Below are positions 3,854 to 58,154 of a stretch of DNA of 64,000 nucleotides, piece by piece. Location: IMG/VR virus record IMGVR_UViG_3300029431_000104, one strand, 5' to 3'. Numbering within the stretch: position 1 is the stretch's first letter; every line of letters starts with the position of its first letter. This DNA is from a virus. Under the pieces are notes generated by a model. The model saw only the letters and a list, made by a program, of their open reading frames with translations, ran no database searches and was not told where the DNA came from. A program made the position numbers and the translations under genes.

Positions 3854-3901
3854 ATGCCCTCTTTGGCTTTTTTTATTATGCGTCAAGGAGGTGGAACCCG
3901 T

Positions 3902-9237: not shown

Positions 9238-9558
9238 ATGGAAGATTACACGGCTGAGATGATTAGGGACATGGCTTTTTCCTTCTGCCCTCAGTGCGGT
9301 ACGGCAATCGTACCAAACCATAAAGGCAGACCACGGAAGTTCTGCTCACCGGAATGCCGGTCACGGTGGAACAACACCCATCCAAAGCCGGAGAACTGGA
9401 AGACCGTGCGGTCGAAGATCTGCCCGGTGTGCGGCAGGGAGTTTTCCTACCGGCACCAGTATGGTCTGGAACGGAAATATTGCAGCCGTGCCTGTGCAAA
9501 CAAAGGACGCTGGAAGGAGGGCGATGCAAATGGAAGAACCGCTGAACATAGAACGTAA
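9238..9558 (+). CDS. double zinc-ribbon protein
   Basis: 106 aa; two CxxCG-x16-18-CSxxCR units (CPQCG...CSPECR; CPVCG...CSRAC). Confidence 0.5.
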   Translation: MEDYTAEMIRDMAFSFCPQCGTAIVPNHKGRPRKFCSPECRSRWNNTHPKPENWKTVRSKICPVCGREFSYRHQYGLERKYCSRACANKGRWKEGDANGRTAEHRT

Positions 9559-12291: not shown

Positions 12292-14546
12292 GCACAGAAC
12301 AGAATAAGACTTTGACCCTCGGCAGCCTCTTTGATGGCTCCGGGGGTTTTCCATTGGGCGGTCTGTTGACCGGGCAGATCACTCCGGTGTGGAGCAGCGA
12401 GATCGAGCCGTTTGCCATCCGGGTCACGACCAAACGTCTGCCGCAGGTGAAGCACTACGGAGATGTGTCTGCCATCAGCGGAGCAGACCTGCCTCCAGTG
12501 GACATCATCACTTTTGGGAGTCCCTGTCAGGATATGTCCATCGCCGGTAAGCGGGACGGTCTGGATGGTTCACGGTCCAGTCTGTTTTACGAAGCAATCC
12601 GAATCGTGAAGGAAATGAGGTGTAAGACCAATGGAGAAAAACCAAGATTTATCGTGTGGGAGAATGTGCCAGGGGCCTTCTCCTCAAACAAAGGGCAGGA
12701 CTTCAAAGCAGTCCTCGAAGCCGTCATCGGTGTTAAAGAACCGGCCGCCTCGGTGCCTGCGCCTGAGAAGAAAGGATGGCCCGATGCCGACTACTATGTG
12801 GGAGACGGATGGAGCGTCGCGTATCGAGTTCTTGATGCACAGTGGTGGGGCGTTCCCCAAAGAAGAAAACGTATCTACCTTGTCGCAGATTTTGCAGACC
12901 AGAGTGCCCCAAAGGTACTATTTGAGTCCGAAGGCGTGTCTCGGTATTCTGCGGAGGGCTTCCGTGCGTGGCAAAGAGCTGCCGCCGGTGCTGAAAGCGG
13001 CACTGGAGAGGCAGGCTGTAACGGAGCAGGAGGACGGATCTGTCTGAACGACCAGGGCGGCAGGCAGATGGATGTTTCCAAAGATGTGACCGGAACCCTA
13101 CGGGCAGAGGAGCATGGGCATCAGCCGTGTGTTCTGGAAGCCGCCGGTTTTTGTACCGAGCATTCCGCAGATGCCAGAAGCATCGGATACGAGGAAGAGC
13201 GGTCACAGACCCTCCGAGCTGGTGTTGTGCCTGCCGCCATCGCACTGGAGAATCATCCTGCTGACAGCCGGGTGAAGATTTCCGAGGACGGTAAGGTGCA
13301 GACACTGACAAGCCGGTGTGGTACGGGTGGCGGCAATGTCCCGATGGTCATGGATGCTGTTGAAAATTCAGTGGAAAGCTCGGTGAAAGATGTTGAAAAC
13401 TCCCCGGCAGTCACACTGAAAATTCGCTCCGGTTGCGAGGGCGGCGGGAAGGGAGCCATCTGGCAGGAAGAAAAGTCGGCCACCCTCGGCTGCAACAACG
13501 ACCAGACACTGTTCGTTCCGAAATGCTATGGCGTCTGTTCCAAAGTCAGCCATTCCATGATGTCCGATAATCCGCACAGCGGTTTTTATGAGGCCGAAAC
13601 TTCCCGGACACTGGACCGCAGCGGCGGTGACCCGACCTGCAATCAGGGCGGTATCTGTGTGGTAGAGCCGGTCGCCTTTACCCAGAACCAGAGGGATGAA
13701 GTCCGGGATCTTGGAGAAAAGTCAGCGGCACTGGCAGCAGATCCAGGGATGAAGCAGCAGACCTTTGTGGCACAGCCGGAAGATGTGACAGTCTTCCATG
13801 TGAACCAGCGCAATGAGCTGATCGATCTGCATGGTAAGTCCGGCGCTTTGATGGCGACCCGGAGTGACCAGATGCAGACCTTCGTCCTGCAGGGCAACAT
13901 GATCGGCCGCAAGGATGAGAACGGTCCGCAGGGGGATGGTGTCAATGAGGATGTCTGCTTTACACTGGATGCCACTGACCGCCATGCAGTCTGCGCACCG
14001 GAGGATGTGTATGCCATGACCACCGGCTCCTATATGCAGGTGGCAAAAGAAGTCGCACCGACCCTGATGGCACGGGATTACAAAGACCCGACCACCATCG
14101 CACCGGTACCGCATTTGAACGAGGGTGTCATGGGAACGGTGGCAACCGGGGCACATCCCAGCGGCTTCAACGGGCAGGATGCTTTCAATGACCGTCTGGT
14201 CATCGACAATCCGGAAGCACAGCCCGCACCTGTGACCTATACAGTTCGCCGTTTGACACCGACCGAGTGTGCCAGACTGCAGGGCTTCCCAGACTGGTGG
14301 TGCAGAGACCTCGGAACGGAAGACCCGACCGAAGAAGAGCTGGCATTCTGGGCAGATGTGTTTGAAACGCACCGTAAGATCGTGACCCATGCCAAGAAGC
14401 CGAAAACGGAGAAGCAGATCCGGAAATGGCTGGCTGACCCGTATACGGATTCGGCCGAGTACCGTATCTGGGGCAACGGCATTTGCTTAGCCAACGCATT
14501 CTTTGTTCTGGCCGGCATCGCATGGTGTGCAGGTCTGGAAGAATAA
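12288..14546 (+). CDS. DNA (cytosine-5)-methyltransferase, large (752 aa) with extended variable region
   Basis: Motif I LFDGSGG; motif IV GSPCQDMSIAG; motif VI ENVPG; C-terminal motif IX/X RRLTPTECARLQGFPD; a ~450-aa variable/target-recognition region suggests a multispecific enzyme. Confidence 0.85.
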   Translation: MSTEQNKTLTLGSLFDGSGGFPLGGLLTGQITPVWSSEIEPFAIRVTTKRLPQVKHYGDVSAISGADLPPVDIITFGSPCQDMSIAGKRDGLDGSRSSLFYEAIRIVKEMRCKTNGEKPRFIVWENVPGAFSSNKGQDFKAVLEAVIGVKEPAASVPAPEKKGWPDADYYVGDGWSVAYRVLDAQWWGVPQRRKRIYLVADFADQSAPKVLFESEGVSRYSAEGFRAWQRAAAGAESGTGEAGCNGAGGRICLNDQGGRQMDVSKDVTGTLRAEEHGHQPCVLEAAGFCTEHSADARSIGYEEERSQTLRAGVVPAAIALENHPADSRVKISEDGKVQTLTSRCGTGGGNVPMVMDAVENSVESSVKDVENSPAVTLKIRSGCEGGGKGAIWQEEKSATLGCNNDQTLFVPKCYGVCSKVSHSMMSDNPHSGFYEAETSRTLDRSGGDPTCNQGGICVVEPVAFTQNQRDEVRDLGEKSAALAADPGMKQQTFVAQPEDVTVFHVNQRNELIDLHGKSGALMATRSDQMQTFVLQGNMIGRKDENGPQGDGVNEDVCFTLDATDRHAVCAPEDVYAMTTGSYMQVAKEVAPTLMARDYKDPTTIAPVPHLNEGVMGTVATGAHPSGFNGQDAFNDRLVIDNPEAQPAPVTYTVRRLTPTECARLQGFPDWWCRDLGTEDPTEEELAFWADVFETHRKIVTHAKKPKTEKQIRKWLADPYTDSAEYRIWGNGICLANAFFVLAGIAWCAGLEE

Positions 14547-14678
14547 ACTGGCCCGCTATATTACTAGGTAGAAAGCGACCTGTTGATATGGTGGGCTTAC
14601 ATATTGGTCCTATTTACACAACAGATTTTGCGGCCCCTTGTGTAAATGGTCGAACATGAAGAATATCGGGAAATGGCC

Positions 14679-14709
14679 TTGCTATTCATCCGTTTTAGAG
14701 TGATATATG
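14679..14709 (+). promoter_or_regulatory. degenerate copy of the repeated early promoter
   Basis: CCTTGCTAT ... TGATATATG ... ACCGAAAAG shares the -35 TTGCTA and the ACCGAAAG leader with the 16111-22984 promoter family. Confidence 0.35.
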
Positions 14710-14769
14710 TGCTACCGAAAAGAACATCGGGATGCACAAAAACAAATGAACGAAAAGGAGCGATGAATT

Positions 14770-15954
14770 ATGTTGAAATTTAAACTGAACGTAGCCGAGA
14801 GAAAGACCCTCGCAAAACGCATGGAGGAGCTGACCGGCATCCACCCTTACTATACCAAAGCACCTCTGTATTCTTACGACATCGGGAGCTACACCATCGA
14901 CCGGAATGGCAACCTTCTGGTCGAGCCGGAGAATGCAGATGCCGAGCTGCTGACGACCCTGCTGAATGAGGGACTGATCCGCGGCGGCGAGAGTATTGAG
15001 AGTACGGATGACCAGCCGGAGGACACAGAGCTGACAGCGGATATGGATGAGGAGCCTGTGACCGAAGCGGAAACTGAGCAGATGCCCGAAGCAGAGCTGG
15101 AGGTTCTGGACGAGCAGGAATCCGAAGATGCAGATACCGCAGAAGATGAACCTGCGGAAGCAGGAGCCGAGGATGCATTGGAGCCGGACAATACGGCTGA
15201 GGATGATACCATAGAGGATGAGCCGGATGCAGAATCGCAGGAGACAGAAGATCAGCCGGAAGAGGTGCCGCTGGACTTGGAACTTGCATTCCCGGTCAGC
15301 CAGCACAACGGTGTGACTCTCCGCAACCTGGTCAACCTTCTTTACAGCCGCGGCAAGCTCATCGGCAAGGCGACTGGAGGACACTTCCATGTGGAAGAGG
15401 GGCTGGTCGAGAAGCTGAAGGACGATAGCTGCACCTTTGCCATCATGAACTTCATCAATGCGGTCAGCGACTATGAGACTGAACATGGTGCTGCACTGGA
15501 AGGCCTGAAAATCACCACCGAGAAGGTCACCTTTACCGGCTTCCCGACTGCACCGGACCACGAACATCTGACGGCTTTTGCACAGCTGGCGGTGCTGATG
15601 AACCAGCAGGCTATCAGCCAGAAGCGCATCCAGGCAAAGGATGTCAACGATGAGAATGAGAAATACTCACTCCGCACATGGCTCCTGCGGCTGGGGATGA
15701 ACGGTCCGGATTTCAAAGAGACACGCAAGATCCTCATGGAGAACCTTTCCGGCCATGCGGCTTTCCGCACGGATGAGGAAGCACAGAAGTTCCTTGCAAG
15801 GGAAAAGGCAAAACGGGATGCCCTGAAAGCCGCGAAACTGGCGGCACAGAACGGCGATCCTGCCACAGGGGAAACGGTCGCACCGGATACGACCCGGCCG
15901 ACACAGCCCGACTGTGGGGCAGACATGGCGCAGATGCTGGAGGCGGGAGCGTAA
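14770..15954 (+). CDS. divergent amidoligase-like paralog (probable pseudoenzyme) with ~100-aa poly-acidic insert
   Basis: 394 aa. Its N-terminus (NVAERKTLAKRMEELTG) aligns to the amidoligase NITREKAARKVAEYFGT. GGHFHVEEG aligns to GCGVHIHIG, KVTFTGF to GTIEFRLF, and the C-terminal NEKYSLRTWLLRLGMNGPDFKETRKILMENLSGHAAFR to NEKYAMRCWMLRLGFIGDEFATAREILLRNMEGNASWR. The catalytic E-x-E and E/R positions are replaced. Residues 85-190 are almost entirely D/E. Confidence 0.6.
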   Translation: MLKFKLNVAERKTLAKRMEELTGIHPYYTKAPLYSYDIGSYTIDRNGNLLVEPENADAELLTTLLNEGLIRGGESIESTDDQPEDTELTADMDEEPVTEAETEQMPEAELEVLDEQESEDADTAEDEPAEAGAEDALEPDNTAEDDTIEDEPDAESQETEDQPEEVPLDLELAFPVSQHNGVTLRNLVNLLYSRGKLIGKATGGHFHVEEGLVEKLKDDSCTFAIMNFINAVSDYETEHGAALEGLKITTEKVTFTGFPTAPDHEHLTAFAQLAVLMNQQAISQKRIQAKDVNDENEKYSLRTWLLRLGMNGPDFKETRKILMENLSGHAAFRTDEEAQKFLAREKAKRDALKAAKLAAQNGDPATGETVAPDTTRPTQPDCGADMAQMLEAGA

Positions 15955-16110
15955 GCTCCCAATCCCCCAATGGGGGCCGGAAAATATGCGAGACCCTCTT
16001 CCATTGTACCGATATTAGCTCTGAAAATGTACATTATCAAGCGGATAAACTGCAGAAATGTACACGATCATTCTGCCTTATATTTGTCGAATATATGTTC
16101 TTTTATATCC

Positions 16111-16139
16111 TTGCTATTATCCGCACCTGACGGTAATAT
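16111..16139 (+). promoter_or_regulatory. repeated early promoter copy (TTGCTA-17-TAATAT) driving the amidoligase operon
   Basis: TTGCTA 16111-16116, 17-nt spacer ending TGACGG, TAATAT 16134-16139; leader CACATACCGAAAGGGAAAAC; same element as the 20248-22984 copies. Confidence 0.6.
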
Positions 16140-16186
16140 GCACATACCGAAAGGGAAAACAAGGAAAAAACAAAGGAGAACATACC

Positions 16187-17125
16187 ATGAACGATAAAAC
16201 AAGAGAGCAGATTGAAGCCATGAAGAACCAGACCATCGGAGTTGAGATTGAGATGAACAACATCACCAGAGAAAAAGCGGCAAGAAAGGTCGCCGAGTAC
16301 TTCGGAACCAGAGCATGGAACGCCGCCGGCGAGTACGGATATTACAGCTGGGCTTGCAAGGATGGACAGGGCAGGGTTTGGAAATTCCAGAGGGATGTGA
16401 GCATCTACGGACCGGACGCAGAAAAATGCGAACTGGTCACCCCGATCCTCACCTACGACGACATCGAAACCTTGCAGGAAATCATCCGGCTGCTCCGAAA
16501 GGCAGGCGCAAAGAGCGGCCCAAGCCGCGGATGCGGAGTCCACATTCACATTGGCAAAGGCGACCACACCGCAAAGACCATCCGCAACCTTGTGAACATC
16601 ATGGCGGCGCACGAACAGCAGATCGGCAGAGCCATCCGGATCGATGCAGGGCGCACCGGACAATATTGCCAGGTGGTCAACCATCGCTTCCTCGACCGGC
16701 TGAACCGCGAGAAGCCGACCACCATGCACAGGCTGGAAGACATCTGGTACGAAGGCAACGGTTCCAGCTGGGAAAACCGGAATGCCCACTACAATTCAAG
16801 CCGGTACCATATGCTGAACCTCCATGCCACCTTTACAAAAGGGACCATTGAATTCCGCCTTTTCCAATTCGCAGACCCAGCGGACGGAAAGCGCAACGGA
16901 CTGCACGCCGGTGAGATGAAAGCCTATATCCAGCTTTGCCTCGCAATGAGCCAGCTTGCCAAGATGGTCAGGACGGCAAGCCCAAAGCCCCAGCAGACCG
17001 ACAATGAAAAGTATGCGATGCGGTGCTGGATGCTGAGGCTGGGATTCATCGGGGATGAATTTGCAACGGCAAGGGAAATCCTTCTGCGGAACATGGAGGG
17101 CAACGCATCCTGGCGGAACAAATAA
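16187..17125 (+). CDS. amidoligase (Amidoligase_2 / glutamine-synthetase-like fold)
   Basis: 312 aa starting at an internal ATG after the AAAGGAGAA RBS. GS-like motifs are present: GVEIEMN (E-x-E), GCGVHIHIG (H-x-H) and GTIEFRLF (E, R). Iyer et al. 2009 described this family in phages and conjugative elements. Confidence 0.8.
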   Translation: MNDKTREQIEAMKNQTIGVEIEMNNITREKAARKVAEYFGTRAWNAAGEYGYYSWACKDGQGRVWKFQRDVSIYGPDAEKCELVTPILTYDDIETLQEIIRLLRKAGAKSGPSRGCGVHIHIGKGDHTAKTIRNLVNIMAAHEQQIGRAIRIDAGRTGQYCQVVNHRFLDRLNREKPTTMHRLEDIWYEGNGSSWENRNAHYNSSRYHMLNLHATFTKGTIEFRLFQFADPADGKRNGLHAGEMKAYIQLCLAMSQLAKMVRTASPKPQQTDNEKYAMRCWMLRLGFIGDEFATAREILLRNMEGNASWRNK

Positions 17126-17192
17126 GCCGGGATGCACGGGCACCTTTTGGGCGGGCAACCGCCCTTGAGGTGGTAGAAGGAGGTGCAGGTTT

Positions 17193-17429
17193 ATGAAAAG
17201 CACGTTAAAAAATGAAAACACACCGGGTGGCAGAACCTTTAAGGTGACCATCACCGAGACCTACCAGAGAACGGTGACCATTTATGAATCCGAGATGAAA
17301 GAGCCGACCGTGGAGGAAGCACAGCGTGTGGCAGAGGACTGGTGGCAGGACAGCCAGATCGAGCTTGGGACAGAGGATTTCCAGGGCGTGGAATTCACTG
17401 GCAGGGAGGACGGTGAGGCAGATGTTTGA
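17193..17429 (+). CDS. small acidic protein (78 aa) co-transcribed with amidoligase/GGCT
   Basis: Strong RBS GAAGGAGGTG; C-terminus ...FTGREDGEADV; overlaps the GGCT start by 8 nt (translational coupling). Confidence 0.5.
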   Translation: MKSTLKNENTPGGRTFKVTITETYQRTVTIYESEMKEPTVEEAQRVAEDWWQDSQIELGTEDFQGVEFTGREDGEADV

Positions 17430-17943
17430 GTTGATCAGCCGAGTCCCATCCAGATATTATCTTGCCTACGGAAGCAACCTCGACATGGAGCGGATGGGAA
17501 AGAGATGCCCCTACGCTGTGGTGGTCGGCACGACCGAGATCAAGGGCTACCGGCTCCTGTTCAAAAAGAGCAAGACCGGCTGCTATGCCACCATCGAGCA
17601 GGATGCCAATGAAAGCGTACCAGCGGTGGTCTGGAAACTCTCGGAATACGATGAGCTCCTGCTGGACCGGTACGAGGGATGCCCAAGATACTATTACAAG
17701 AAGCAGTTCCAGCTTCAGGTCTGGAACCTGAACGGGAACCGCATGAAAAAGGCAAAGCCCTGCATCGCTTATGTGATGCACGAGGACCGGCGGCTTGGCT
17801 GCCCGGATGCCGAGTATTTTGAACTGCTGCAGGGCGGATACAGCGACTGGGAGTTTCCGCTGGACACACTGAAGCGTGGACTGGCAGCCAGTATCGGAAG
17901 GGCGGAAGCCATCCGGTATCTGAAGAAGCGGCAGATGATGTAA
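17422..17943 (+). CDS. gamma-glutamyl cyclotransferase-like protein (GGCT/AIG2 family), copy 1
   Basis: YYLAYGSNLDMERM...YEGCPRYY: AIG2/GGCT signature YxxYGSN and a downstream Glu; 173 aa from the ATG at 17422. Confidence 0.8.
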   Translation: MFELISRVPSRYYLAYGSNLDMERMGKRCPYAVVVGTTEIKGYRLLFKKSKTGCYATIEQDANESVPAVVWKLSEYDELLLDRYEGCPRYYYKKQFQLQVWNLNGNRMKKAKPCIAYVMHEDRRLGCPDAEYFELLQGGYSDWEFPLDTLKRGLAASIGRAEAIRYLKKRQMM

Positions 17944-18073
17944 GAGTACACGATCAAAAGCAAAAAACATTGTGCAGTATATGATGCTCATCGGCCTTGA
18001 TAAATCAGGGCAGAAGAGTGATATATACCATACCGCCAGACAAGAGCGGAGAAAACCGAAGGGAGAGATTCAA

Positions 18074-18553
18074 ATGAAGAACAAGAAATATTACATCGCC
18101 TACGGCAGCAACCTGTCGGTGGAGCAGATGGCAGACCGATGCCCGGATGCAAAAATTGCAGGGCAGGCGGTGCTGGCCGGCTGGGAGCTTTTGTTCCGCG
18201 GCTGCGCCACCATCGCACCGAACCCGAAGAAGAACACGCCGGTTCTGGTGTGGGAGATCTCGGAAAGGGACGAAGGAAACCTCGACCTCTATGAGGGCTA
18301 CCCGAACTACTACCGCAAGGAAGATCTGAACATCGAACTGCTCCGGGAAAGGGCAGAGCCGGAGATGGTGACCGCAATGGTCTACATCATGGAGAACGAC
18401 TTCGGACGCCGCTCACCGAGCCGGTATTACTACAAAGTCCTGCATGACGGCTACAAGGCATTCCACTTCCCGATGCACATCCTCGAAGGTGCGCTGAAGG
18501 AATGCATGGATAAGGATGCCGCCCAGCGGATGATCGAGGAGGTGCAGGCATGA
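18074..18553 (+). CDS. gamma-glutamyl cyclotransferase-like protein (GGCT/AIG2 family), copy 2
   Basis: YYIAYGSNLSVEQMADRCP...LYEGYPNYY; paralog of 17422-17943; ATG at 18074 after GAAGGGAGAG. Confidence 0.8.
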   Translation: MKNKKYYIAYGSNLSVEQMADRCPDAKIAGQAVLAGWELLFRGCATIAPNPKKNTPVLVWEISERDEGNLDLYEGYPNYYRKEDLNIELLRERAEPEMVTAMVYIMENDFGRRSPSRYYYKVLHDGYKAFHFPMHILEGALKECMDKDAAQRMIEEVQA

Positions 18554-19017
18554 ATTTCGCAGATAAGAAAACGGTCGAGAAGCTGAGAAAAGAGTTCCCG
18601 GTCGGATGTCGGATCGTCCTCGATGAGATGGATGACAGGCAGGCACCGACCATCGGAACGCAGGGAACCTGCAACGGGGTCGATGATGCCGGAAACATTT
18701 TAGTGAGCTGGGATACCGGAAGCCATCTAAACGTTGCCTACGGCGCGGACAGTTGCCACCGTGTGGCAACGGATGCCGAGGTCAAGGTGTCGCTCGACCG
18801 GCTTGGTAAAACGCGACAGACCGGCCCACGTTGCCCCAGGTGCGGAGCAAAGCCCGACTGCTACGACCATCAGCAGCAGGCACTCAGCCGAAGGGCGGAC
18901 ATCCAGATCTGCAACCGCTGCGGAACGGAGGAAGCGTTAGAGGACATTGCATGGGGCGGACAGCAGAAGATGCATCTTGCAGACTGGGCAATCGTGAAAG
19001 GAGGCTGGGTCGAATGA
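18550..19017 (+). CDS. DUF4314-like protein with C-terminal zinc ribbon
   Basis: LRKEFPVGCRIVLDEMDD.QAPTIGTQGTCNGVDDAGNILVSWDTGSHLNVAYG matches the DUF4314 signature found in phage/ICE accessory regions; C-terminal CPRCG...CNRCG. Confidence 0.55.
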   Translation: MNFADKKTVEKLRKEFPVGCRIVLDEMDDRQAPTIGTQGTCNGVDDAGNILVSWDTGSHLNVAYGADSCHRVATDAEVKVSLDRLGKTRQTGPRCPRCGAKPDCYDHQQQALSRRADIQICNRCGTEEALEDIAWGGQQKMHLADWAIVKGGWVE

Positions 19018-19385
19018 AGGTTCTTCTGATCAAACCGATGGAGCATCCGCAGGTGGTGGACATTGAAAACTCCCTGAAAGAGTTCTACCGCATCCTCGAC
19101 TGCGACTGTATCACAGCCACCTACCCGTGGGAAGAACGCGCCGCCCTGGTCACCGATGACAACGGTCTGTTCACCGAGAAGTCATTCAGCAGATACATCC
19201 CGGAGCTGGAGCAGCCCATCAAGGGAAACTTCTTCATCTGCGGACTGGGAGAGGAGGATTTCGCAGAACTGCCCCAGGACCTGATCCGGAAATTCAAGGA
19301 ACGCTTCTGGGTGCCGGAGGCATTCGTCAGCATGTTCGGGCAGATGGCAGTCATCCAGATGGATGACGGAACGAAGCCGGAATAA
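19014..19385 (+). CDS. DUF3846-like protein
   Basis: The ATG at 19014 overlaps the previous stop (ATGA). MKVLLIKPMEHPQVVDIENSLKEFYRILDCDCI...FFICGLGEED is typical of DUF3846 proteins of ICE and phage leading regions. Confidence 0.55.
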   Translation: MKVLLIKPMEHPQVVDIENSLKEFYRILDCDCITATYPWEERAALVTDDNGLFTEKSFSRYIPELEQPIKGNFFICGLGEEDFAELPQDLIRKFKERFWVPEAFVSMFGQMAVIQMDDGTKPE

Positions 19386-19456
19386 GATACCGCAATCAGA
19401 AAAATACCCTCTCGGCCAGAAAAGACCGGGAGGGCTTAGTTTAACAGGAGGAGCCT

Positions 19457-19648
19457 ATGGGACACAGAAAGATGCCGGCTTATGGCGAGAGGGAACACGG
19501 CGGCAGATACATTCTGGATGAATACGAATGGTCAAGAAACCACTGCAAGGCGGTGACCATCCGCAGATGGAAAAGGGACCTGAAAAAGAAAGCCAGAGCG
19601 CATAACCGCAGGGTGATGCATCAGGCAATGCAGGGCGAGGTCGATTAG
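19457..19648 (+). CDS. small basic protein (63 aa)
   Basis: Strong RBS AGGAGGAGCC, ATG at 19457; K/R-rich; function unknown. Confidence 0.4.
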   Translation: MGHRKMPAYGEREHGGRYILDEYEWSRNHCKAVTIRRWKRDLKKKARAHNRRVMHQAMQGEVD

Positions 19649-19846
19649 ACGGAAAATGGGGGCTTCAAAAGAATGAGAACCCCCTTCCAGTTTACTGTAT
19701 ATTACCTCTGGAAAGCAACAATAGCAAGGAGAACCGCCGCCATAATGTACACAAACATCTGGCAGCGGTTTTGTGTATCATACCAAACCAAAACGGGGGA
19801 TACGAGGCAGAGCCCCAGCCTCTGCTGGGGAGCCTCTTGGGATTCC

Positions 19847-20101
19847 TTAGAAGAAATCCCTCATGCTCATGCCGACCTCGTTCAGTCGTTCCTCCATGCT
19901 GTGGTAGTGCCAATCCTCTTCCTCTTCTTCGTCCTCTTCCTCAAGCTCCTCTGGGAAAGGGTCGTGCCGCCATCCGGCTTTCTGGTATTCTTCTTCCCGA
20001 ATGTCGTTGCGGTCGTAAATGTCCAGCTCGTATTCTTCTTCAAGCTCTGCGATGCGGTTTTCGATTGCGGTTTCAACTTCTGTAATGGTCTTTTTCATGG
20101 T
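19847..20101 (-). CDS. small poly-acidic protein (84 aa), minus strand
   Basis: ATG at 20101 (minus strand) after a GGAGG RBS; sequence EEEYELDIYDRNDIREEEYQKAGW...EELEEEDEEEEEDWHYH; convergent with 19457; hairpins in the 19650-19840 gap. Confidence 0.5.
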   Translation of the reverse strand, partial: TMKKTITEVETAIENRIAELEEEYELDIYDRNDIREEEYQKAGWRHDPFPEELEEEDEEEEEDWHYHSMEERLNEVGMSMRDFF

Positions 20102-20247
20102 TTTTGTCCTCCGTTTTTGGTTTGGTTTTCTTTGCTTTCGTTGTGTGTATAATGCCGCAGAAACACATATATAGCAAGTCAATCAGGGGTCATATATGTA
20201 CCAAACATGAGGGACGAAGATCGTTGATAATATGAGGTTTTATGGCC

Positions 20248-20276
20248 TTGCTATCACAGGGCAGTGACGGTAATAT
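20248..20276 (+). promoter_or_regulatory. repeated early promoter copy
   Basis: TTGCTA 20248-20253, 17-nt spacer ending TGACGG, TAATAT 20271-20276. Confidence 0.6.
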
Positions 20277-20307
20277 ACAGCTACAAAAAGCAAAGGAGGA
20301 CAGCAGA

Positions 20308-20484
20308 ATGGCTGATTGGAGAACATGGAAAAAAGGAAGAAAGACAACATGGCACTGGAACGAATTCGATGGTAGCGGAAGCCGGGAAGGAATCATCACC
20401 GAGGTTCATGAAGACCACGCAATCATGGAAGCAGACGGCATGCACCTCTGGATCGACGATGACACGGCAGAGATGTTCAGCTAA
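20308..20484 (+). CDS. small hypothetical protein (58 aa)
   Basis: RBS AAAGGAGGACAGCAGA then ATG; MADWRTWKKGRKTTWHWNEFDGSG... Confidence 0.5.
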   Translation: MADWRTWKKGRKTTWHWNEFDGSGSREGIITEVHEDHAIMEADGMHLWIDDDTAEMFS

Positions 20485-20565
20485 GAAAAACGGGGAGGGA
20501 AACTTCCCCGGATAAACACATAAATCCACCAGTTCAGGGCGCAGATGATCGTGTACTTTAGCCGC

Positions 20566-20594
20566 TTGATAGTGTCCGGCAGTGACGGTAATAT
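20566..20594 (+). promoter_or_regulatory. repeated early promoter copy
   Basis: GATCGTGTACTTTAGCCGC-TTGATA(20566-20571)-17 nt-TAATAT(20589-20594). Confidence 0.6.
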
Positions 20595-20624
20595 ACAGCT
20601 ACCAAAACGAAAGGGGCAAAGAAC

Positions 20625-20831
20625 ATGGAACGCTACACTTACGAGATTATCTTTACACGGCTGGATGGACAGCCGGATGAAATCCAGCAGCACACCAGCG
20701 AGGAGCTGGCAAGAGAATGCTTCCGGCTTTTCGATGAGCCGGACAGCGCAGAGATGTACAGCAAAATCGAACTTAGCTGCCATGACTGGGAGACAGGCAT
20801 GGATGAGATTCTGGAAACGATGACATTCTGA
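20625..20831 (+). CDS. small acidic hypothetical protein (68 aa)
   Basis: ATG 20625, 31 nt after the -10; MERYTYEIIFTRLDGQPDEIQQH... Confidence 0.5.
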   Translation: MERYTYEIIFTRLDGQPDEIQQHTSEELARECFRLFDEPDSAEMYSKIELSCHDWETGMDEILETMTF

Positions 20832-20843
20832 GGAGAAAAAAAC

Positions 20844-21104
20844 ATGACCTACACAAAAATCAGCCTTTACCTTGCAAACGGAATTCCAGAGGCACTCAGC
20901 AACCTCTGGTACGGAAGCGACAGCGCGGTGGTCGAGATCAGGGATGCCGTTGAGGATGCGAAGAACGGCAAGGACCTTCTGAACCGCATCCAGAAGATGA
21001 AGCTCCTGCGGAAATTCACCCTCGACAGGGAGAACGACAAGCGCATCCGCTTCAAGGGAACGAACTGCTGGGGCAACGTAAGCTACCTCGAAATCATCCG
21101 CTAA
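20844..21104 (+). CDS. small hypothetical protein (86 aa)
   Basis: RBS GAGGAGAAAAAAAC then ATG; operonic with 20625. Confidence 0.5.
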   Translation: MTYTKISLYLANGIPEALSNLWYGSDSAVVEIRDAVEDAKNGKDLLNRIQKMKLLRKFTLDRENDKRIRFKGTNCWGNVSYLEIIR

Positions 21105-21234
21105 AGGCAAGACCGACAGGCGCAAGGGGCTGGAAATGACCAGCCTTTTGCTCGTGTCTGTCTTCCGAAAGCTGGCATGAAAAGCACATAAATATGACAA
21201 TTACAGGGCTTGATGATCGTGTAGTTTAGCCGCT

Positions 21235-21262
21235 TGATAGTGCTCCGAGGTGACGGTAATAT
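21235..21262 (+). promoter_or_regulatory. repeated early promoter copy
   Basis: GATCGTGTAGTTTAGCCGC-TTGATA(21235-21240)-16 nt-TAATAT(21257-21262); leader ACCGAAAGGGAAAAAC. Confidence 0.6.
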
Positions 21263-21306
21263 ACAGTCACCGAAAGGGAAAAACAACAAAAACGGAGGAT
21301 ACGACA

Positions 21307-21756
21307 ATGACGAAGAACGAAGAACGCATCAATAAACTTTTCAAGGAACTGGTACCGGAGACGGGCAAGGCAGACAGCCTCGCAGGGGAGCTGGTAAGGG
21401 CAATGAGCCGCATCGGATACCGCTTTTACAACGATGGCGACCAGCTGGGCATCGGCTACGGCAAGGAAACCTGCAACCCTGCAGGGCGCTTCCTTGGAGC
21501 CAAGGGCAACGACAAAATCGCAAAGCTGACTGCAGATGCATGGGCAGTCTACAGCGAGGAAGCCTACGAAAAGGTCCTGGGCATCCTTTGCGGAGCGGTT
21601 GCCGACTATGTTGAGCAGAACCCAGACCTTAGAAACCAGCCGACCGAAGATATGTGGGATTTCAAGGATGAGGAAGAAGACCAGGATGACAGCTGGGATG
21701 AAGAGGAAGATGACTGGGGCGAAGAGGAAGATTACGAGGACGAAGAAGACTACTAA
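21307..21756 (+). CDS. hypothetical protein with poly-acidic C-terminal tail (149 aa)
   Basis: RBS ACGGAGGATACGACA then ATG; C-terminus DFKDEEEDQDDSWDEEEDDWGEEEDYEDEEDY. Confidence 0.55.
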   Translation: MTKNEERINKLFKELVPETGKADSLAGELVRAMSRIGYRFYNDGDQLGIGYGKETCNPAGRFLGAKGNDKIAKLTADAWAVYSEEAYEKVLGILCGAVADYVEQNPDLRNQPTEDMWDFKDEEEDQDDSWDEEEDDWGEEEDYEDEEDY

Positions 21757-21851
21757 GCCAGAAACACACGGGGCTTGCCGGAAACGGCAGCCCTTTTCTT
21801 CTGCTGTAATACGCACAGTTCCGGGCGGCTATCTTTGTGTAGTATAGCCGC

Positions 21852-21880
21852 TTGATAGTGTGTGACATAGACGGTAATAT
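21852..21880 (+). promoter_or_regulatory. repeated early promoter copy
   Basis: GTAGTATAGCCGC-TTGATA(21852-21857)-17 nt-TAATAT(21875-21880). Confidence 0.6.
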
Positions 21881-21924
21881 GCACATACCGAAACGGAAAA
21901 CCAAGAAAAACGGAGGAAAGCACC

Positions 21925-22116
21925 ATGAAGAAGAACATCACCAAGGAAGAGGAAAAAGCCCTGCTGGAGATCGCCAAGCGCCTGATGGCAGCGGTGGACA
22001 GCCGGGGCGACCTCGAAGCCCGCGACAATGACAGCGAGGACTTCATTGAGGTTCCGGTCTGGGGCATCCAGAAAGCAATGGAGGAAGCCTACCTGCTGGG
22101 ACGGATGACCAGATAA
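21925..22116 (+). CDS. small hypothetical protein (63 aa)
   Basis: RBS ACGGAGGAAAGCACC then ATG. Confidence 0.5.
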   Translation: MKKNITKEEEKALLEIAKRLMAAVDSRGDLEARDNDSEDFIEVPVWGIQKAMEEAYLLGRMTR

Positions 22117-22244
22117 ACCGGCAGCCTCCGACACAGCCCCACACAGGGGCTTGTGCCACGGGTGGCAAAACGATCCGAAGGAACCGACAACGCCCCACAC
22201 AGGGGCAGATGTGGCGGCGTGGATGCGCCGGGAAGGAGAAGCAC

Positions 22245-22451
22245 ATGGAAGAACGGATGATGGATACCATCGTGGAAATCTACAACCACATGGATGACAG
22301 CGATAAGGATGCCTTCACGTTGGAAGATGCCGAGGATATGGTGGAAGACCAGATCAGGATGGATAAGGAAGCCGGACGGGAACCGCTGGCATATGACCCG
22401 CAGTTCTTCTACGATACCATTGTGGAACTCATGGAGCAGGACGAAGAGTGA
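22245..22451 (+). CDS. small acidic hypothetical protein (68 aa)
   Basis: RBS GGAAGGAGAAGCAC then ATG at 22245; upstream region has two CAGCCCCACACAGGGGCTG-type hairpins instead of a promoter copy. Confidence 0.45.
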   Translation: MEERMMDTIVEIYNHMDDSDKDAFTLEDAEDMVEDQIRMDKEAGREPLAYDPQFFYDTIVELMEQDEE

Positions 22452-22500
22452 TGTACATTCTGCCTGGTATTCCGGGCAGAAGATCGTGTACTTTAGCCGC

Positions 22501-22529
22501 TTGCTATCCTTTGCACCTGACGGTAATAT
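22501..22529 (+). promoter_or_regulatory. repeated early promoter copy
   Basis: GATCGTGTACTTTAGCCGC-TTGCTA(22501-22506)-17 nt-TAATAT(22524-22529); leader CCGAAAGGGGAAAGCCCC hairpin. Confidence 0.6.
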
Positions 22530-22586
22530 GCACATACCGAAAGGGGAAAGCCCCAAGGAAAAAACGAAAACACGGAGGAATTCACC

Positions 22587-22871
22587 ATGAAAAAGCATTT
22601 GATCGACTTCCCGGAAAACAACATCAGCATCGAGAGCTTCTACGACCGGCTCAGACCTTGCTACGATAGCATCATGCAGTTTAGTGACCGGGTTCTGGTT
22701 GCCCAGATGAACTGGAATGGCATGCTGGAGGGAGCGGTATACGGCTTTGTGGAAGACCCGGAGGAAGGCTGGTCACCGATTGAATGCCGGCTGGAACTTC
22801 TGAAGATTTCCGATGAGACCTACACGGATGCCGGTCACGCAATCGAGTGGTGCATCAGGAACGCACACTGA
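22587..22871 (+). CDS. small hypothetical protein (94 aa)
   Basis: RBS CACGGAGGAATTCACC then ATG. Confidence 0.5.
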   Translation: MKKHLIDFPENNISIESFYDRLRPCYDSIMQFSDRVLVAQMNWNGMLEGAVYGFVEDPEEGWSPIECRLELLKISDETYTDAGHAIEWCIRNAH

Positions 22872-22983
22872 AAAAGGGCAGAGCTCCTTCGGGGGCTTTT
22901 GCTCGTAGTGGTGGATTCTTCCAGTGTGAAAATACACATAAATCCGACAAAAAGAGGTGTGTATGATCGTGCAGCATAGCCGC

Positions 22984-23012
22984 TTGCTATGTCCGGGCAG
23001 TGACGGTAATAT
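22984..23012 (+). promoter_or_regulatory. repeated early promoter copy
   Basis: GATCGTGCAGCATAGCCGC-TTGCTA(22984-22989)-17 nt-TAATAT(23007-23012). Confidence 0.6.
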
Positions 23013-23070
23013 ACAGTCACAACGAAGGGGAAAGCCCTACGGAAAACAAAACACACGGAGGATACAGACC

Positions 23071-23448
23071 ATGACGAACAAAGCAAAAACCTACCTTAAG
23101 AACATTCAGGGAGCCGACACCGAGAAGAAGCTAATTGGCATCGAGATCGCCTTCAAGCAGGACATGACCCTCAGCTGCAGCGACCTCGGAAGCCTTTGCA
23201 GGGCGGCAGAAGACAGGCGGTACAGCCTGCGTAACAATGAGGAAACGCTGAAGCTGAAGCAGATCCTTTTCTTCCGGACGAAAGCGGAGATGGACGCCTA
23301 CCACGACATGAGCCGCAAGCCGGAAGACTGGACGGAAGCGGAGATCGAGCAGCAGAGAAGCCGCTTCTGCAGCGTCTGGCAGGTCATCGAGGAAGCGGAG
23401 CTGGTCGATGAATACGAGGCTTGGAAGGAAGCCAACCCCAACGCCTAA
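23071..23448 (+). CDS. hypothetical protein (125 aa)
   Basis: RBS ACACGGAGGATACAGACC then ATG at 23071. Confidence 0.5.
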   Translation: MTNKAKTYLKNIQGADTEKKLIGIEIAFKQDMTLSCSDLGSLCRAAEDRRYSLRNNEETLKLKQILFFRTKAEMDAYHDMSRKPEDWTEAEIEQQRSRFCSVWQVIEEAELVDEYEAWKEANPNA

Positions 23449-23580
23449 CAGCACCCAAAAGGTACACGCCCCGAAAAGGGGCTGTGCCTCGTATCCGATG
23501 TGTTTTATATAAAGTTGCCGAAATGGGAAACTATTTGTTAGTTATACAGAAAAGTTTCCTGTTTAGGAAAATGATATTTC

Positions 23581-23609
23581 GAGGACTTCTTTGGAGGTCC
23601 TTTTTCTTT
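23581..23609 (+). terminator. rho-independent terminator before the packaging module
   Basis: AGGAC-ttctttgg-AGGTCCT hairpin followed by TTTTTCTTT. Confidence 0.45.
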
Positions 23610-23638
23610 ACCCATTTTTGCAGAAAGGAGGAGATGCC

Positions 23639-24119
23639 AATGGCTACCAGAGGCAGAAAACCAAAGCCGACCGCCATGAAGGAACTGGAAGGTAATCCGG
23701 GCAAACATCCGCTGAACACCAGCGAACCGAAGCCCAATAAGAAAGCACCGGCCTGTCCGAAGTGGCTGGAGCCGGAAGCAAAGAAAGAGTGGCGTAGACT
23801 TGCCAAACAGATGGAAGCCATCGGCATCCTGACCGAAGTGGACATGGCGGCCTTTGCCGGTTACTGTCAGGCGTATGCCCGATGGAAGGAGGCAGAGGAG
23901 TTCATCACCCAGCACGGCACTATCGTCAAGACCCCGTCCGGGTACTGGCAGCAGGTGCCGCAGGTGTCCATCGCCCAGACCTATCTGAAGATCATGAACA
24001 AGTTTGCAGAGCAGTTCGGTCTGACCCCGTCCTCCCGAAGCCGGATCATTGCTTCGGACGGCGGTCCTGCGGATGCAGCTGATGAGATGGAGAATCTGCT
24101 GGGAGGAGGTGGAAGCTGA
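23639..24119 (+). CDS. terminase small subunit (P27-like)
   Basis: 160 aa; RBS AAGGAGGAG; sequence RGRKPKPTAMKELEGNPGKHPLN...AFAGYCQAYARWKEAEEFI typical of P27-family TerS. Confidence 0.8.
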
Positions 24120-25744
24120 TGGCAGAGTGCAGACCCCAAAACTATCCGAAACTGAAGGACTACAAACCCAGCCGGTTCATGCTTCCGACCTGCCATTACG
24201 ATGCCGCAAAAGCAGACCGGGCAGTGACTTTTATCGAAAACCTGCGTCATACCAAAGGCAAGTGGGCGGGCAAGCGGTTCTGGCTGCTTCCTTGGCAGGA
24301 GCAGATCATCCGGGATGTGTTCGGCATCGTGGACGAAAAAGGGAACCGTCAGTTTCGCACGGCTTATGTCGAAATCGGCAAGAAAAATGGAAAATCCGAG
24401 CTTGCCGCTGCGGTGGCCTTGTATCTGCTTTTTGCCGATAATGAGCCATCTGCCGAAGTCTATGGTGCGGCGGCTGACCGCCAGCAGGCATCCATTGTTT
24501 TTGATGTTGCCCACCAGATGGTGCAGATGACCCCGGCACTTTTGAAACGGTGCAAGATCATGGCAGCCACCAAGCGCATCGTGAACTACGGGAACGCAGG
24601 ATTTTATCAGGTTCTGTCTGCCGAAGTTGGTACGAAGCACGGTCTGAACGTGTCAGGTCTGGTGCTGGATGAGGTTCATGCCCAGCCAAACCGAAAACTC
24701 TACGATGTCCTTACCAAAGGTTCCGGTGATGCCCGTGAGCAGCCGTTGTTCTTCCTGATCACCACGGCCGGCACGGACAAGGAGAGCATCTGCTACGAGC
24801 TCCACATGAAAGCACTTGACCTGTTGGCCGGACGCAAGATCGACCACACCTTCTACCCCGTGGTCTACGGTTTGACCGATGAGGATGATTGGCACGATGA
24901 AGCCAACTGGTATAAAGCCAATCCCTCTCTCGGCCAGACCATCCAGATCCAGCGTGTCCGGGATGCATACCAGGAAGCACTGGATAACCCGGCAGAGGAG
25001 AACGTGTTCAAGCAGCTCCGTCTGAATATGTGGGTGTCCTCGTTGACCCGGTTTATACCGGAACACATCTACAACCTCGGCAATCAGCCAATCGATATGG
25101 AAGCCCTCAAAGGCCGTGACTGTTATGGAGGACTGGACTTGTCCAGCACCGGAGATATCACGGCTTTTGTGCTGATGTTCCCGCCCAGAGGTCCAGAGGA
25201 GAAGTACATCATGCTTCCGTTTTTCTGGATACCGGAGGATACGATCCCCCAGCGGGTGCGCAGGGCATCCGTTCCGTATGATGTCTGGTATCAGCAGGGC
25301 TACCTGATGGCGACAGAAGGCAATGTCATCCACTACGGATTTATTGAAAAGGTCATCGAGGAACTAGGCAAGACCTACCATATTTTAGAGATTGCCTTTG
25401 ACCGATGGGGAGCCGTGCAGATGACCCAGAATCTTGAGGGGATGGGATTCACAGTCGTTCCTTTCGGTCAGGGCTTTAAAGATATGAGCCCGCCTACCAA
25501 GGAGTTCTACAAGCTCCTGATGGAAGGCAGGATCATCCACGGCGGCAATCCGGTTATGGCATGGATGGCGGGGAATGTGGTCGTGGATACCGACCCGGCT
25601 GGCAACATCAAGCCGACCAAGGCGAAGTCGCCGGAGAAGATCGATGGTATCGTCGCTGCGATCATGGCACTGGACCGCTGCATCCGAAATGAAGGTCAGC
25701 AGCAGGGAAGCGTCTACGACGAACGTGACATGATTGTTTTTTGA
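24119..25744 (+). CDS. terminase large subunit
   Basis: 541 aa; ATG overlaps the TerS stop; terminase ATPase and nuclease regions conserved (ELAAAVALYLLFADNE, GLDLS..GD, FDRWGA). Confidence 0.9.
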   Translation: MAECRPQNYPKLKDYKPSRFMLPTCHYDAAKADRAVTFIENLRHTKGKWAGKRFWLLPWQEQIIRDVFGIVDEKGNRQFRTAYVEIGKKNGKSELAAAVALYLLFADNEPSAEVYGAAADRQQASIVFDVAHQMVQMTPALLKRCKIMAATKRIVNYGNAGFYQVLSAEVGTKHGLNVSGLVLDEVHAQPNRKLYDVLTKGSGDAREQPLFFLITTAGTDKESICYELHMKALDLLAGRKIDHTFYPVVYGLTDEDDWHDEANWYKANPSLGQTIQIQRVRDAYQEALDNPAEENVFKQLRLNMWVSSLTRFIPEHIYNLGNQPIDMEALKGRDCYGGLDLSSTGDITAFVLMFPPRGPEEKYIMLPFFWIPEDTIPQRVRRASVPYDVWYQQGYLMATEGNVIHYGFIEKVIEELGKTYHILEIAFDRWGAVQMTQNLEGMGFTVVPFGQGFKDMSPPTKEFYKLLMEGRIIHGGNPVMAWMAGNVVVDTDPAGNIKPTKAKSPEKIDGIVAAIMALDRCIRNEGQQQGSVYDERDMIVF

Positions 25745-52529: not shown

Positions 52530-52563
52530 GACCAGTTGCAAGGCTGGAAGAAAGGAGCAGATT

Positions 52564-58144: not shown

Positions 58145-58154
58145 GAGGAAGTAC

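Follow-up and report, generated by a model that had tools for sequence, protein, structure and literature searches.

What is the short DNA element that recurs ahead of one small gene after another in the accessory array of the IMG/VR virus record IMGVR_UViG_3300029431_000104, and what does it do there? We analyzed the whole 64,000-nt stretch of this record (hereafter the window), in which an initial annotation had described eight near-identical copies of one strong promoter, each driving small genes of a possible anti-defense or early regulon. The reading that we favor, with a probability of roughly 70%, is that the array consists of reiterated, portable promoter/leader cassettes of sigma-A type, which would insulate and strongly express accessory genes and at the same time supply the homology for their shuffling. 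The promoter/cassette reading is well supported by the comparative evidence, and, judged from its sequence, the element is larger than first described, with an upstream dyad box and a covarying 5′ stem-loop beyond the two hexamers.

Searching the window for TGACGGTAATAT with at most one mismatch gave 8 matches against 0.15 expected, a number reached in none of 100 shuffles. Seven of them lie in the array, all on the plus strand between 16128 and 23012, and establish that the reiterated element is real; the eighth, at 1225 on the minus strand and with 1 mismatch, lies outside the array and is unrelated. The seven strong plus-strand copies align gap-free on the -10 as TTG(A/C)TA-17 nt-TAATAT, with a 17-nt spacer throughout. 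They correspond to seven of the eight copies listed by the initial annotation, whereas the remaining one, at 14679, is weak, has GATATA as its -10 and was missed by the nhmmer profile at E<10. This copy has the family -35 context and leader, and its -35 and GATATATG are fixed across 12 sequence variants while the spacer changes. Four further copies were found, a weak one at 17997 on the plus strand and three at 16040, 19727 and 20177 on the minus strand, so that the window holds 12 copies within 9 kb of small genes, weak and minus-strand ones counted. The sigma-A-type geometry is present in seven plus-strand and two minus-strand copies and is weaker in those at 14679, 17997 and 20177. The hexamers had been called textbook; they match the sigma-70 consensus at 9 of 12 positions, which makes the word slightly generous.

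The additional copies differ in what follows them. The weak 17997 copy precedes a GGACT gene (family 10 of the cargo proteins, numbered here by family) which in relatives sits behind a canonical promoter copy. No credible open reading frame (ORF) was found downstream of the minus-strand copy at 16040-16012, which could give rise to antisense or insulating transcription. The orphan copy at 19727-19699 is kept in 44 sequence variants, and the segment 19727-19655 on the minus strand may yield a short RNA (about 45-50 nt) that runs towards the end of the plus-strand operon lying upstream; the hairpin shared by the two may be a bidirectional terminator. The diverged 20147-20177 copy is covered by the inverted repeats I1 and I4 of the window, and relatives have a clearer copy at this place.

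Viral relatives were gathered by an exact hexamer-containing pattern, which gave at least 119 viral contig stretches (relatives are designated L plus a number), most of them with two or more copies and, with profile matches, up to 9. Scanning one genome per species of bacteria and archaea (185,579 species) gave 69 stretches, of which most were titled Clostridia (Ruminococcus, Blautia, Faecalibacterium, Lawsonibacter, Clostridium fessum, Acetatifactor and related metagenome-assembled genomes) and about six were metagenome-assembled genomes labeled Alistipes, Bacteroidales, Planctomycetota or Chloroflexota. Many of the genome stretches were clustered with an ORF of family-6 size (312-314 aa, the length of the window amidoligase) and with small ORFs, all of these sized, not annotated. 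The profile search found the element nowhere in the other 55 kb of the window nor in the 10-kb left arm of the phage described below. It was not found in the PLSDB plasmids and was absent from 50,697 GenBank phage records except for one unannotated metagenomic fragment. A host-wide repeat of the repetitive extragenic palindromic or miniature inverted-repeat transposable element type was therefore rejected, given only 69 clustered stretches in 185,579 species and none in the non-array 55 kb of the window; the element is confined to the accessory region of this phage lineage, in line with the phage-specific origin that the initial annotation had set against a genome-wide repeat.

With the profile at E<1e-3, 525 copies were collected in 120 sources, and no locus had mixed orientation at that threshold. 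The -10 is TAATAT in 496 of the 525, and 495 are followed by a Shine-Dalgarno (SD) sequence and an ORF of 35 aa or more, which start 10-60 nt (in four cases about 110 nt) past the presumed transcription start. The repeats thus look and behave as the initial annotation had proposed, like promoters with a common leader, being intergenic and co-oriented with an SD and ORF. A non-redundant set of 89 copies, less than 70% identical to one another, was used for an information profile, in which both hexamers are conserved, as are the GG ahead of the -10 and the TTTAGCCGC ahead of the -35; the first 10-13 spacer positions hold almost no information, and the consensus per cargo agrees with this. Such an alternation of conserved and free positions fits selection on a sigma-A promoter and not recent duplication. 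We accordingly consider it exceedingly improbable that the similarity is only what is left of one intergenic region having been duplicated serially in the recent past, its repeated sequence free of selection: the window copies are indeed close together and 62-100% identical over about 100 nt, but uniform decay is not what is seen, the weak 14679 copy keeps its -35 and -10 while its spacer varies, and the module stands before unrelated genes in phages only about 70-85% identical in the flanks and from hosts of two orders. The first downstream ORFs fall into at least 27 protein families, almost all without assigned function.

The sequences next to the hexamers bear on the polymerase involved. 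All copies of the window-type lineage are of the GACGG subtype, named after the bases before the -10, while distant arrays mix the subtypes GACGG, ATGG (a true TGn extended -10) and AGAGT. The profile-only copies and the more distant genome set contain the -10 variants TATAAT, TATAGT, TATACT and TAACAT. A phage-encoded or alternative sigma factor might replace sigma-A, as could be argued from the invariant TAATAT, from the conserved flanks (GCCGC before the -35, GACGG or ATGG before the -10) and from the absence of the element from the phage replication genes, which would make the array a separate transcription class. We consider this very unlikely, because the hexamers and the 17-nt spacing fit sigma-A (TTG; TAnnnT; TGn in the ATGG variants) and no sigma-factor domain is present in any scanned protein of the window or left arm. 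Sporulation-type sigma consensus sequences, compared informally by eye, did not fit.

The leader that follows the promoter is less uniform than first described. It spans 30-62 nt between the last base of the -10 and the start codon, not 45-60 nt throughout, and the GGGG-AAAG-CCCC hairpin that had been attributed to the leaders in common is full in two window copies, truncated in one and degenerate in the others. Over the family, the stem-loop has two tiers, CGG-AA-GGGC-loop-GCCC-N-CCG, and begins 8-10 nt past the -10, just where the presumed transcript has its 5′ end. Alignment with MAFFT and RNAalifold first gave no structure, the stems being misaligned, and a covariance model (R1) was built from 13 seeds of equal geometry. 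R1 gave 142 matches in 84 sources, of which 129 sit 1-4 nt past a canonical -10 and 12 more past variant -10s. In the R1 alignment pairing extends to 94% of cells, whereas shuffles reach 77% and slid partners no more than 58%, and both-side changes occur in six of the seven stem pairs, one outer pair being GC in 60 sequences and CG in 26. When 14.0-24.5 kb was compared with Rfam (E up to 1), only a spurious small nuclear RNA match came up. In Firmicutes, 5′ mRNA stabilizers are described that owe their effect to an occluded 5′ end, to polypurine sequences and to a strong SD (review, PMC3997798), and by analogy we propose that the leader stem-loop is a 5′ stabilizer. Other GC hairpins stand ahead of most promoter copies, three of them with T runs.

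Upstream of the promoter, the box GATCGTGTAnTTTAGCCGC reported by the initial annotation was recovered in the five copies from 20566 to 22984; those at 14679, 16111 and 20248 lack it and have TTTTATrkCC in its place. Among relatives of more canonical type the order is a terminator hairpin, CATAATA-TGTACA, about 30 nt, ATGATC-TGTACA-TTTAGCCGC and the -35. The TGTACA dyads are facultative and lie near -50 and -86 from the presumed transcription start. Among the 89 non-redundant copies, an exact TGTACA is found at -38 or -37 from the -10 in 28 and at -76 to -72 in 18, the background being 0.49 per kb. In the window the proximal dyad is degenerate (GTGTAC, GTGTAG, GTGCAG); the array has exact TGTACA sites at 16028, 16059, 19746 and 22452, and its plus-strand copies have it only as the distal box, at 16059-16064 and 22452-22457. 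The fixed position and the palindromy suggest a putative protein-binding site, and the ATGATCTGTACATTTAGCCGC box is probably a candidate site for a DNA-binding regulator. Control of the upstream box through GATC methylation was considered and dropped, since GTTC or ATTC stands for GATC in many copies. A hairpin between the two TGTACA boxes is treated as facultative, as over the family its -4.7 kcal/mol is no better than the -3.8 kcal/mol of shuffles.

Comparison of the arrays showed that the gene content changes by whole cassettes. Written in family numbers, the window array reads 6-5-4-3-0-1-2, and arrays of relatives read 6-5-7-3-0-1-2, 6-4-7-3-0-1-2, 5-3-1-2, 7-3-1-2, 20-5-1-23, 24-0-1-2, 8-11-12-9-0-15-13-18 and 10-6-8-0-16-17. 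The likeness to morons suggested earlier was borne out in that units of promoter, gene and terminator are present or absent between otherwise collinear relatives. Relative L056 lacks cassette 0 (DUF6900); both flanking promoter copies can be aligned to the sequence at its junction, which is what recombination between these copies would be expected to leave. L057, on the other hand, lacks exactly 20628-20836, with the junctions at two start codons, so that the promoter and leader of one gene are fused to the next gene. The genes 20625-20831 and 20844-21104 share one promoter in the window; some relatives, for example L119, have a full copy between them, and some lack the first gene of the pair. 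The presence of the intervening copy in some relatives only indicates that the promoters themselves are gained and lost. Over the window region 19900-23600, 36 of 42 distinct homology breakpoints with relatives fall, within 5 nt, in non-coding DNA, which makes up 36% of the region (our tally of the listed coordinates); the largest cluster, at 23504-23516, is the end of the array. The DUF6900 gene carries the promoter subtype of the genome in which it resides.

These observations raise the alternative that the repeats are in the first place exchange linkers, like the promoter-early stem-loops (PeSLs) discussed below, and that their likeness to promoters is secondary. The widely varying order and content of cassettes, the L056 junction within the repeat and the concentration of breakpoints in intergenic DNA would all follow from it, and the single GACGG subtype of the window lineage, together with a DUF6900 gene that follows the subtype of its genome, is consistent with homogenization between copies. 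Pure linkers, however, need neither invariant hexamers at 17-nt spacing around a free spacer nor a fixed gene orientation, a fixed SD distance or a covarying leader hairpin, and some losses use other junctions, such as the start codons in L057. We therefore regard a primary role in recombination as unlikely.

In the favored reading, a canonical cassette comprises, in order, a GC hairpin that ends the unit before it (three of these hairpins have a T run); TGTACA dyads, which are optional; the box (ATGATC-TGTACA-)TTTAGCCGC, directly adjoining the sigma-A-type promoter TTG(A/C)TA-17 nt-(G)G-TAATAT; the stem-loop 8-10 nt past the -10; an A-rich unstructured leader; a strong SD (GGAGG); and one or two small ORFs. 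Host RNA polymerase with sigma-A would initiate at every copy, and we propose that each accessory gene would thereby be transcribed separately and insulated from its neighbors. The 5′ stem-loop, the polypurine leader and the strong SD would keep the mRNA stabilized and ribosome-loaded in the manner of the Firmicutes 5′ stabilizers, and the TGTACA and TTTAGCCGC boxes would be the probable site of a regulator, probably encoded by the phage, which ties the cassettes into one regulon. The roughly 100-170 bp of common sequence would act as a homology patch through which copies recombine to delete, insert, swap or reorder cassettes. Sequence and comparison establish the repeat, its confinement to the array, its orientation, the pattern of conserved positions, the covarying stem-loop, the ORFs as genes and the differing cassette content, whereas transcription initiation, promoter strength, timing, the regulator and the cargo functions are inferred.

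Several observations weigh against this reading. The pattern with which the viral relatives were collected was derived from the window, so that the invariance of the hexamers is partly built in, for at least one copy per locus. TAATAT matches the consensus -10 at 4 of 6 positions and a true TGn extended -10 is missing from most window copies, so that the promoters may be weaker than assumed or activator-dependent. Three copies lie on the minus strand, two of them without an ORF, which clashes with a simple picture of one promoter for one gene. The stem-loop is intact in just 2-3 of the 12 window copies; the covariation was read from an alignment fitted to the model itself, and G-U pairs (8) in the stem do not exceed A-C (18), so that the hairpin is not demonstrated to be a structure of the sense RNA and the strand is not proven. 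The promoter zone alone (-110 to +70) holds 17 of the 42 breakpoints against 29% expected, a weak excess (p=0.08), and breakpoints at gene boundaries are typical of general phage mosaicism; a role of the repeats as recombination linkers is thus plausible, not proven. Finally, scanning the ORFs of the window and left arm against Pfam and PHROGs gave nothing convincing as a regulator or sigma factor. The sole regulator-like hint among the ORFs of unknown function scanned was a weak zinc-ribbon signal in 9238-9558. DUF6900, as the most widely shared cargo, was tried as a regulator candidate and rejected, its AlphaFold 2 model being poor (pLDDT 69.6, pTM 0.33) with two helices.

Imperfect promoters of this kind would be expected if the array were a factor-dependent regulon, in which a phage activator or repressor acts on TGTACA and TTTAGCCGC next to an imperfect -10 and the array is switched jointly, for instance kept silent in the lysogen and turned on upon infection or induction. 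Conservation extends well past the hexamers, in sequence unlike an A/T-rich UP element; the TGTACA palindromes occupy two fixed positions about 36 bp apart; TAATAT has stayed in 496 of the 525 copies instead of giving way to TATAAT; that one module occurs in the prophages of two host orders speaks for a phage-borne factor; and a prophage would have to restrain a dozen consensus-like promoters. Apart from the missing DNA-binding regulator among the scanned proteins, it speaks against such a regulon that an exact TGTACA is found in about one third of the non-redundant copies, that in the window it is confined to the distal position on the plus strand, the proximal one being degenerate, and that three window copies lack the upstream box wholly. 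We hold this to be a genuine possibility with the odds somewhat against it; it adds to the cassette reading and does not exclude it. A bolder extension, which we think rather unlikely, is that the module is a three-part control device peculiar to one widespread phage lineage of gut Clostridia, with an operator (TGTACA dyads and TTTAGCCGC) for a phage regulator, a sigma-A promoter and a 5′ stem-loop read by an RNA-binding or processing factor from phage or host. The array would then be a gene-capture system, in which any small gene acquiring the module joins a co-regulated establishment/counter-defense regulon, exchangeable between phages of hosts as distant as Faecalibacterium and Blautia, and the minus-strand copies without an ORF would yield short regulatory or insulating RNAs.

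The cargo genes themselves are real. Coding conservation of the small ORFs in relatives, the lack of which the initial annotation had named as telling against its proposal, was checked, and 13 of the 14 largest families tested have their variable sites mainly at the third codon position (counts by codon position, 23/14/124 for the amidoligase family and 31/40/92 for the 149-aa protein); family 13 had no such bias (63/67/76). This bias argues that the ORFs are genuine genes under purifying selection. Recognizable domains of the region are Amidoligase_2, DpnD/PcfM, two GGACT, DUF4314, DUF3846, DUF6900 and Nmad4, and the remaining array proteins had no match in Pfam, PHROGs or NCBIfam. ParB_N-methyltransferase fusions, DUF3846, DUF4314 and DpnD/PcfM belong to families typical of the conflict genes of conjugative elements and phages. 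From the gene context (the methyltransferases, amidoligase, DpnD/PcfM, DUF4314, DUF3846 and Nmad4) an anti-defense role may be hypothesized, and an early timing is a hypothesis of the same kind.

The products are mostly acidic (isoelectric point 4.0-5.3), two being basic, and the label of DNA mimic given earlier to such proteins is likewise hypothetical. The model of the 149-aa protein, a confident one (pLDDT 87), shows a helical bundle followed by an acidic tail that is disordered (residues 132-149), and a fold search with it returned generic helical bundles only, with no support for an Ocr- or ArdA-like fold; neither the fold or sequence of a known mimic nor an elongated rigid acidic surface was found. 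An acidic-tail inhibitor in the style of SPO1 Gp44 (PMC8208478) is, by analogy, not excluded for this protein.

The initial annotation had called such precise reiteration unusual, which overstates the case, as reiterated promoter/terminator cassettes are known from the PeSLs of T4-type phages (Arbiol et al., 2010, PMC2839356; Comeau et al., 2014, PMC4122927) and from the takeover module of SPO1 (PMC6873191). The closest analog is the PeSL, a small cassette of terminator and promoter that stands beside ORFans in hyperplastic regions and brings about modular shuffling; experiments have shown that PeSLs act as promoters and terminators and give mini-circles (PMC2839356, PMC4122927), and their recombination is documented (PMC2839356). 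In both systems, short motifs made up of a stem-loop/terminator, a strong promoter of sigma-70 type (predicted here) and an SD recur in large number over a plastic region of small genes. In PeSLs these motifs delimit the insertions, deletions and replacements that separate related phages; the arrays here differ by whole cassettes. There is no sequence relationship between the two. Here the phages are temperate, carry an integrase and come from Gram-positive gut Clostridia, in contrast to the lytic T4-like myovirus; a conserved upstream box that is not A/T-rich, with its TGTACA dyads, and a covarying stem-loop at the 5′ end of the leader are additions of the present module, whose promoter and terminator activities are putative. 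Given the different phage type (serine integrases, Terminase_4 TerS) and the lack of any GenBank phage match beyond the one metagenomic fragment, the array is to be seen as an analog of the PeSLs and not as a member.

The closest Firmicutes example is SPO1's host-takeover module, which consists of small genes in many short operons with promoters and ribosome-binding sites typical of highly expressed genes (Stewart et al., 1998, to the extent summarized in PMC6873191) and includes the acidic DNA-mimic protein Gp44 (PMC8208478). It shares with the array the clustering of small genes in short, strongly signaled operons of a Firmicutes phage, and differs in that SPO1 is lytic and its module lies in the terminal redundancy and is known to be early. 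To our knowledge, the SPO1 promoters are consensus-like but are not described as one reiterated 100-bp module or as shuffling units. No homology was found between the SPO1 takeover genes and the present gene set.

Like morons, the cassettes are independent promoter-gene-terminator units between phage genes and vary among relatives (PMC3594210); classical morons, however, come each with an unrelated promoter and usually benefit the host through expression in the prophage (PMC3594210). Here a dozen units share one promoter/leader design, which points to a common origin or regulation within the phage lineage. Reiterated promoters are also known as Frpo/ssi, before the establishment and anti-defense genes of plasmid leading regions (Samuel et al., 2024, PMC11541004), where Frpo is a long hairpin of single-stranded DNA that recreates a duplex -35/-10 (PMC11541004). 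The likeness lies in one promoter type before several genes, alongside orphan methyltransferases, and the difference in that phage DNA enters double-stranded; the main text of PMC11541004 makes no mention of DUF3846, DUF4314 or amidoligase. A single-strand promoter of Frpo type was rejected for the array, since an inverted-repeat scan found only the back-to-back pair at 20130-20295 and short hairpins, none covering both hexamers. With none of these systems (PeSL, SPO1, moron or Frpo) does the element share sequence, and the phage type is different. Regulons built on repressor sites are known from the stoperators of mycobacteriophage L5, the conserved inverted repeats at early promoters of phiC31 and the repeated elements of SPbeta. 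They resemble the array in having a short conserved site in many intergenic regions under one phage regulator, but there the repeat is the operator and its binding protein is known, whereas here the whole promoter-leader unit is repeated and the putative operator, TGTACA, is facultative.

If the cassette reading is true, the sequence of the module would flag accessory genes of gut phages, maybe for counter-defense or host takeover, with at least 27 families already marked; Frpo promoters and aca genes are used in a similar way as gene-finding flags elsewhere. It would also provide a compact expression part (promoter, 5′ stabilizer, SD), apparently working across two orders of gut Clostridia that are hard to engineer, and would carry the PeSL idea, that a regulatory cassette is also a recombination linker, beyond lytic T4-like phages of Proteobacteria and into temperate Firmicutes phages.

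The window represents most of a temperate phage of human gut Clostridia, read on the plus strand from left to right, and the array lies in a phage context of serine integrase and a PolA/primase replication module. The neighbors that the initial annotation had given for the array, methyltransferase genes on one side and packaging genes on the other, are right; their coordinates are listed in Table 1 with those of the other features. Contigs with an identical first protein extend the phage by 10 kb further left, and this left arm encodes PolA, a single-stranded DNA-binding protein, a PD-(D/E)XK nuclease and a STAND NTPase. The last of these, a protein of 994 aa with NB-ARC and TPR domains, is encoded on the opposite strand at the left end (L120, 1-1546), upstream of the replication genes, and could be a defense gene or a sensor/regulator. 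Nothing cultured or annotated among the GenBank phages is close, the best match being 73-74% identity over TerL only, besides one unannotated fecal fragment. The lineage is a common one, the first protein encoded in the window being listed by 766 blocks of the assembly collection. Over 15737-25492, the window is 98.6% identical to a contig of Faecalibacterium intestinale CLA-AA-H281 and its identity with contigs of Blautia faecis DFI.3.66 and Clostridium fessum SNUG30386 is about 96% (the three relatives L168, L183 and L184). Near-identical prophages (96-99% over 8 kb) occur in isolates of Faecalibacterium, Blautia and Clostridium fessum, and the same phage in isolates of two orders of Clostridia implies an unusually broad host range, a very recent transfer or assembly contamination.

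Table 1. Features of the window, in order of position (kb or nt of the window; strand given where recorded).
Feature	Position	Strand	Remarks
SNF2 helicase, D5-type primase, MazF-like gene, S-adenosylmethionine (SAM) synthetase, HNH	left part of window		in that order; MazF-like and SAM synthetase genes again in the next rows
MazF/PemK-like toxin domain gene	3854-4483		
SAM synthetase	7407-8474		complete
Three DNA methyltransferases	10257-14546		ParB_N-N6/N4 fusion, N6/N4 enzyme, 752-aa C5 enzyme with long insert
Accessory array	14.6-23.5 kb		
Weak promoter copy TTGCTA-17-GATATA	14679-14707	+	before gene 14770-15954
Promoter copy TTGATA-17-TAATAT	16012-16040	-	back-to-back with 16111 copy; faces 3′ end of gene 14770-15954
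Promoter copy TTGCTA-17-TAATAT	16111-16139	+	before amidoligase gene 16184-17125 (Pfam Amidoligase_2)
Weak promoter copy TTGATA-17-GATATA	17997-18025	+	before GGACT gene 18071-18553
Hairpin	19658-19683		common to end of plus-strand operon (stop codon 19648) and minus-strand orphan promoter
Orphan promoter copy TTGCTA-17-TAATAT	19699-19727	-	followed only by hairpin 19683-19658 and T run, no ORF
Diverged promoter copy, family-type leader	20147-20177	-	would drive acidic 84-aa ORF 20101-19847; back-to-back with 20248 copy
Promoter copy	20248-20276	+	before 58-aa ORF 20309-20484
GC hairpin	20491-20510		after ORF 20309-20484; T run on minus-strand side only
Upstream box GATCGTGTACTTTAGCCGC and promoter copy	20547-20594 (promoter 20566-20594)	+	before ORFs 20625-20831 (68 aa) and 20844-21104 (86 aa)
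Terminator-like GC hairpin and T run	21122-21151	+	after ORF 20844-21104; 61-nt segment 21105-21165, -34.8 kcal/mol
Upstream box and promoter copy	21215-21262 (promoter 21234-21262)	+	before 149-aa acidic-tailed ORF 21307-21756
Terminator-like hairpin and T run	21770-21800	+	after ORF 21307-21756
Upstream box and promoter copy	21833-21880 (promoter 21852-21880)	+	before DUF6900 gene 21925-22116 and 68-aa ORF 22245-22451
Leader stem-loop, truncated (CCG-AAA-CGG only)	21882-21904	+	R1, 18.5 bits, E 0.0019
Hairpin	22458-22481	+	between distal TGTACA and box of 22501 copy; sole hairpin after ORF 22245-22451; -17.8 kcal/mol
Upstream box and promoter copy	22482-22529 (promoter 22501-22529)	+	before Nmad4 gene 22587-22871; distal TGTACA 22452-22457
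Leader 5′ stem-loop, full (GGGG-AAAG-CCCC)	22531-22566	+	R1, 22.8 bits, E 6.3e-05
Terminator-like hairpin and T run	22876-22904	+	after ORF 22587-22871
Upstream box and promoter copy	22965-23012 (promoter 22984-23012)	+	before 125-aa ORF 23071-23448
Leader 5′ stem-loop, full	23016-23050	+	covariance model R1, 28.5 bits, E 7.6e-07
GC hairpin closing last cassette	23460-23489	+	array end about 23505-23515, where homology with relatives stops
TerS (Terminase_4)	23640-24119		
TerL	24119-25744		morphogenesis genes next, then lysis genes
Two adjacent large serine recombinases	50169-54864		closing the prophage

A third serine recombinase (57164-59987 region) lies 3′ of an AAA_25 gene, 3 kb past the first two and in DNA of lower GC content, and may be part of another integrated element. 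AT skew is 0.21-0.25 over the accessory array (14000-24000) against 0.05-0.14 in the packaging and head genes (24-32 kb), with a second rise (to about 0.20) where the recombinase genes lie, at 50-54 kb; the coding strand of the array is markedly A-rich, in line with its purine-rich leaders. A second repeat, CCGACAnnGCCCCACACAGGGGC, which contains the hairpin GCCCC-ACACA-GGGGC, occurs at 22128-22150 and 22184-22206, between the DUF6900 gene and the next ORF, and once more at 15898-15920, inside the end of gene 14770-15954.

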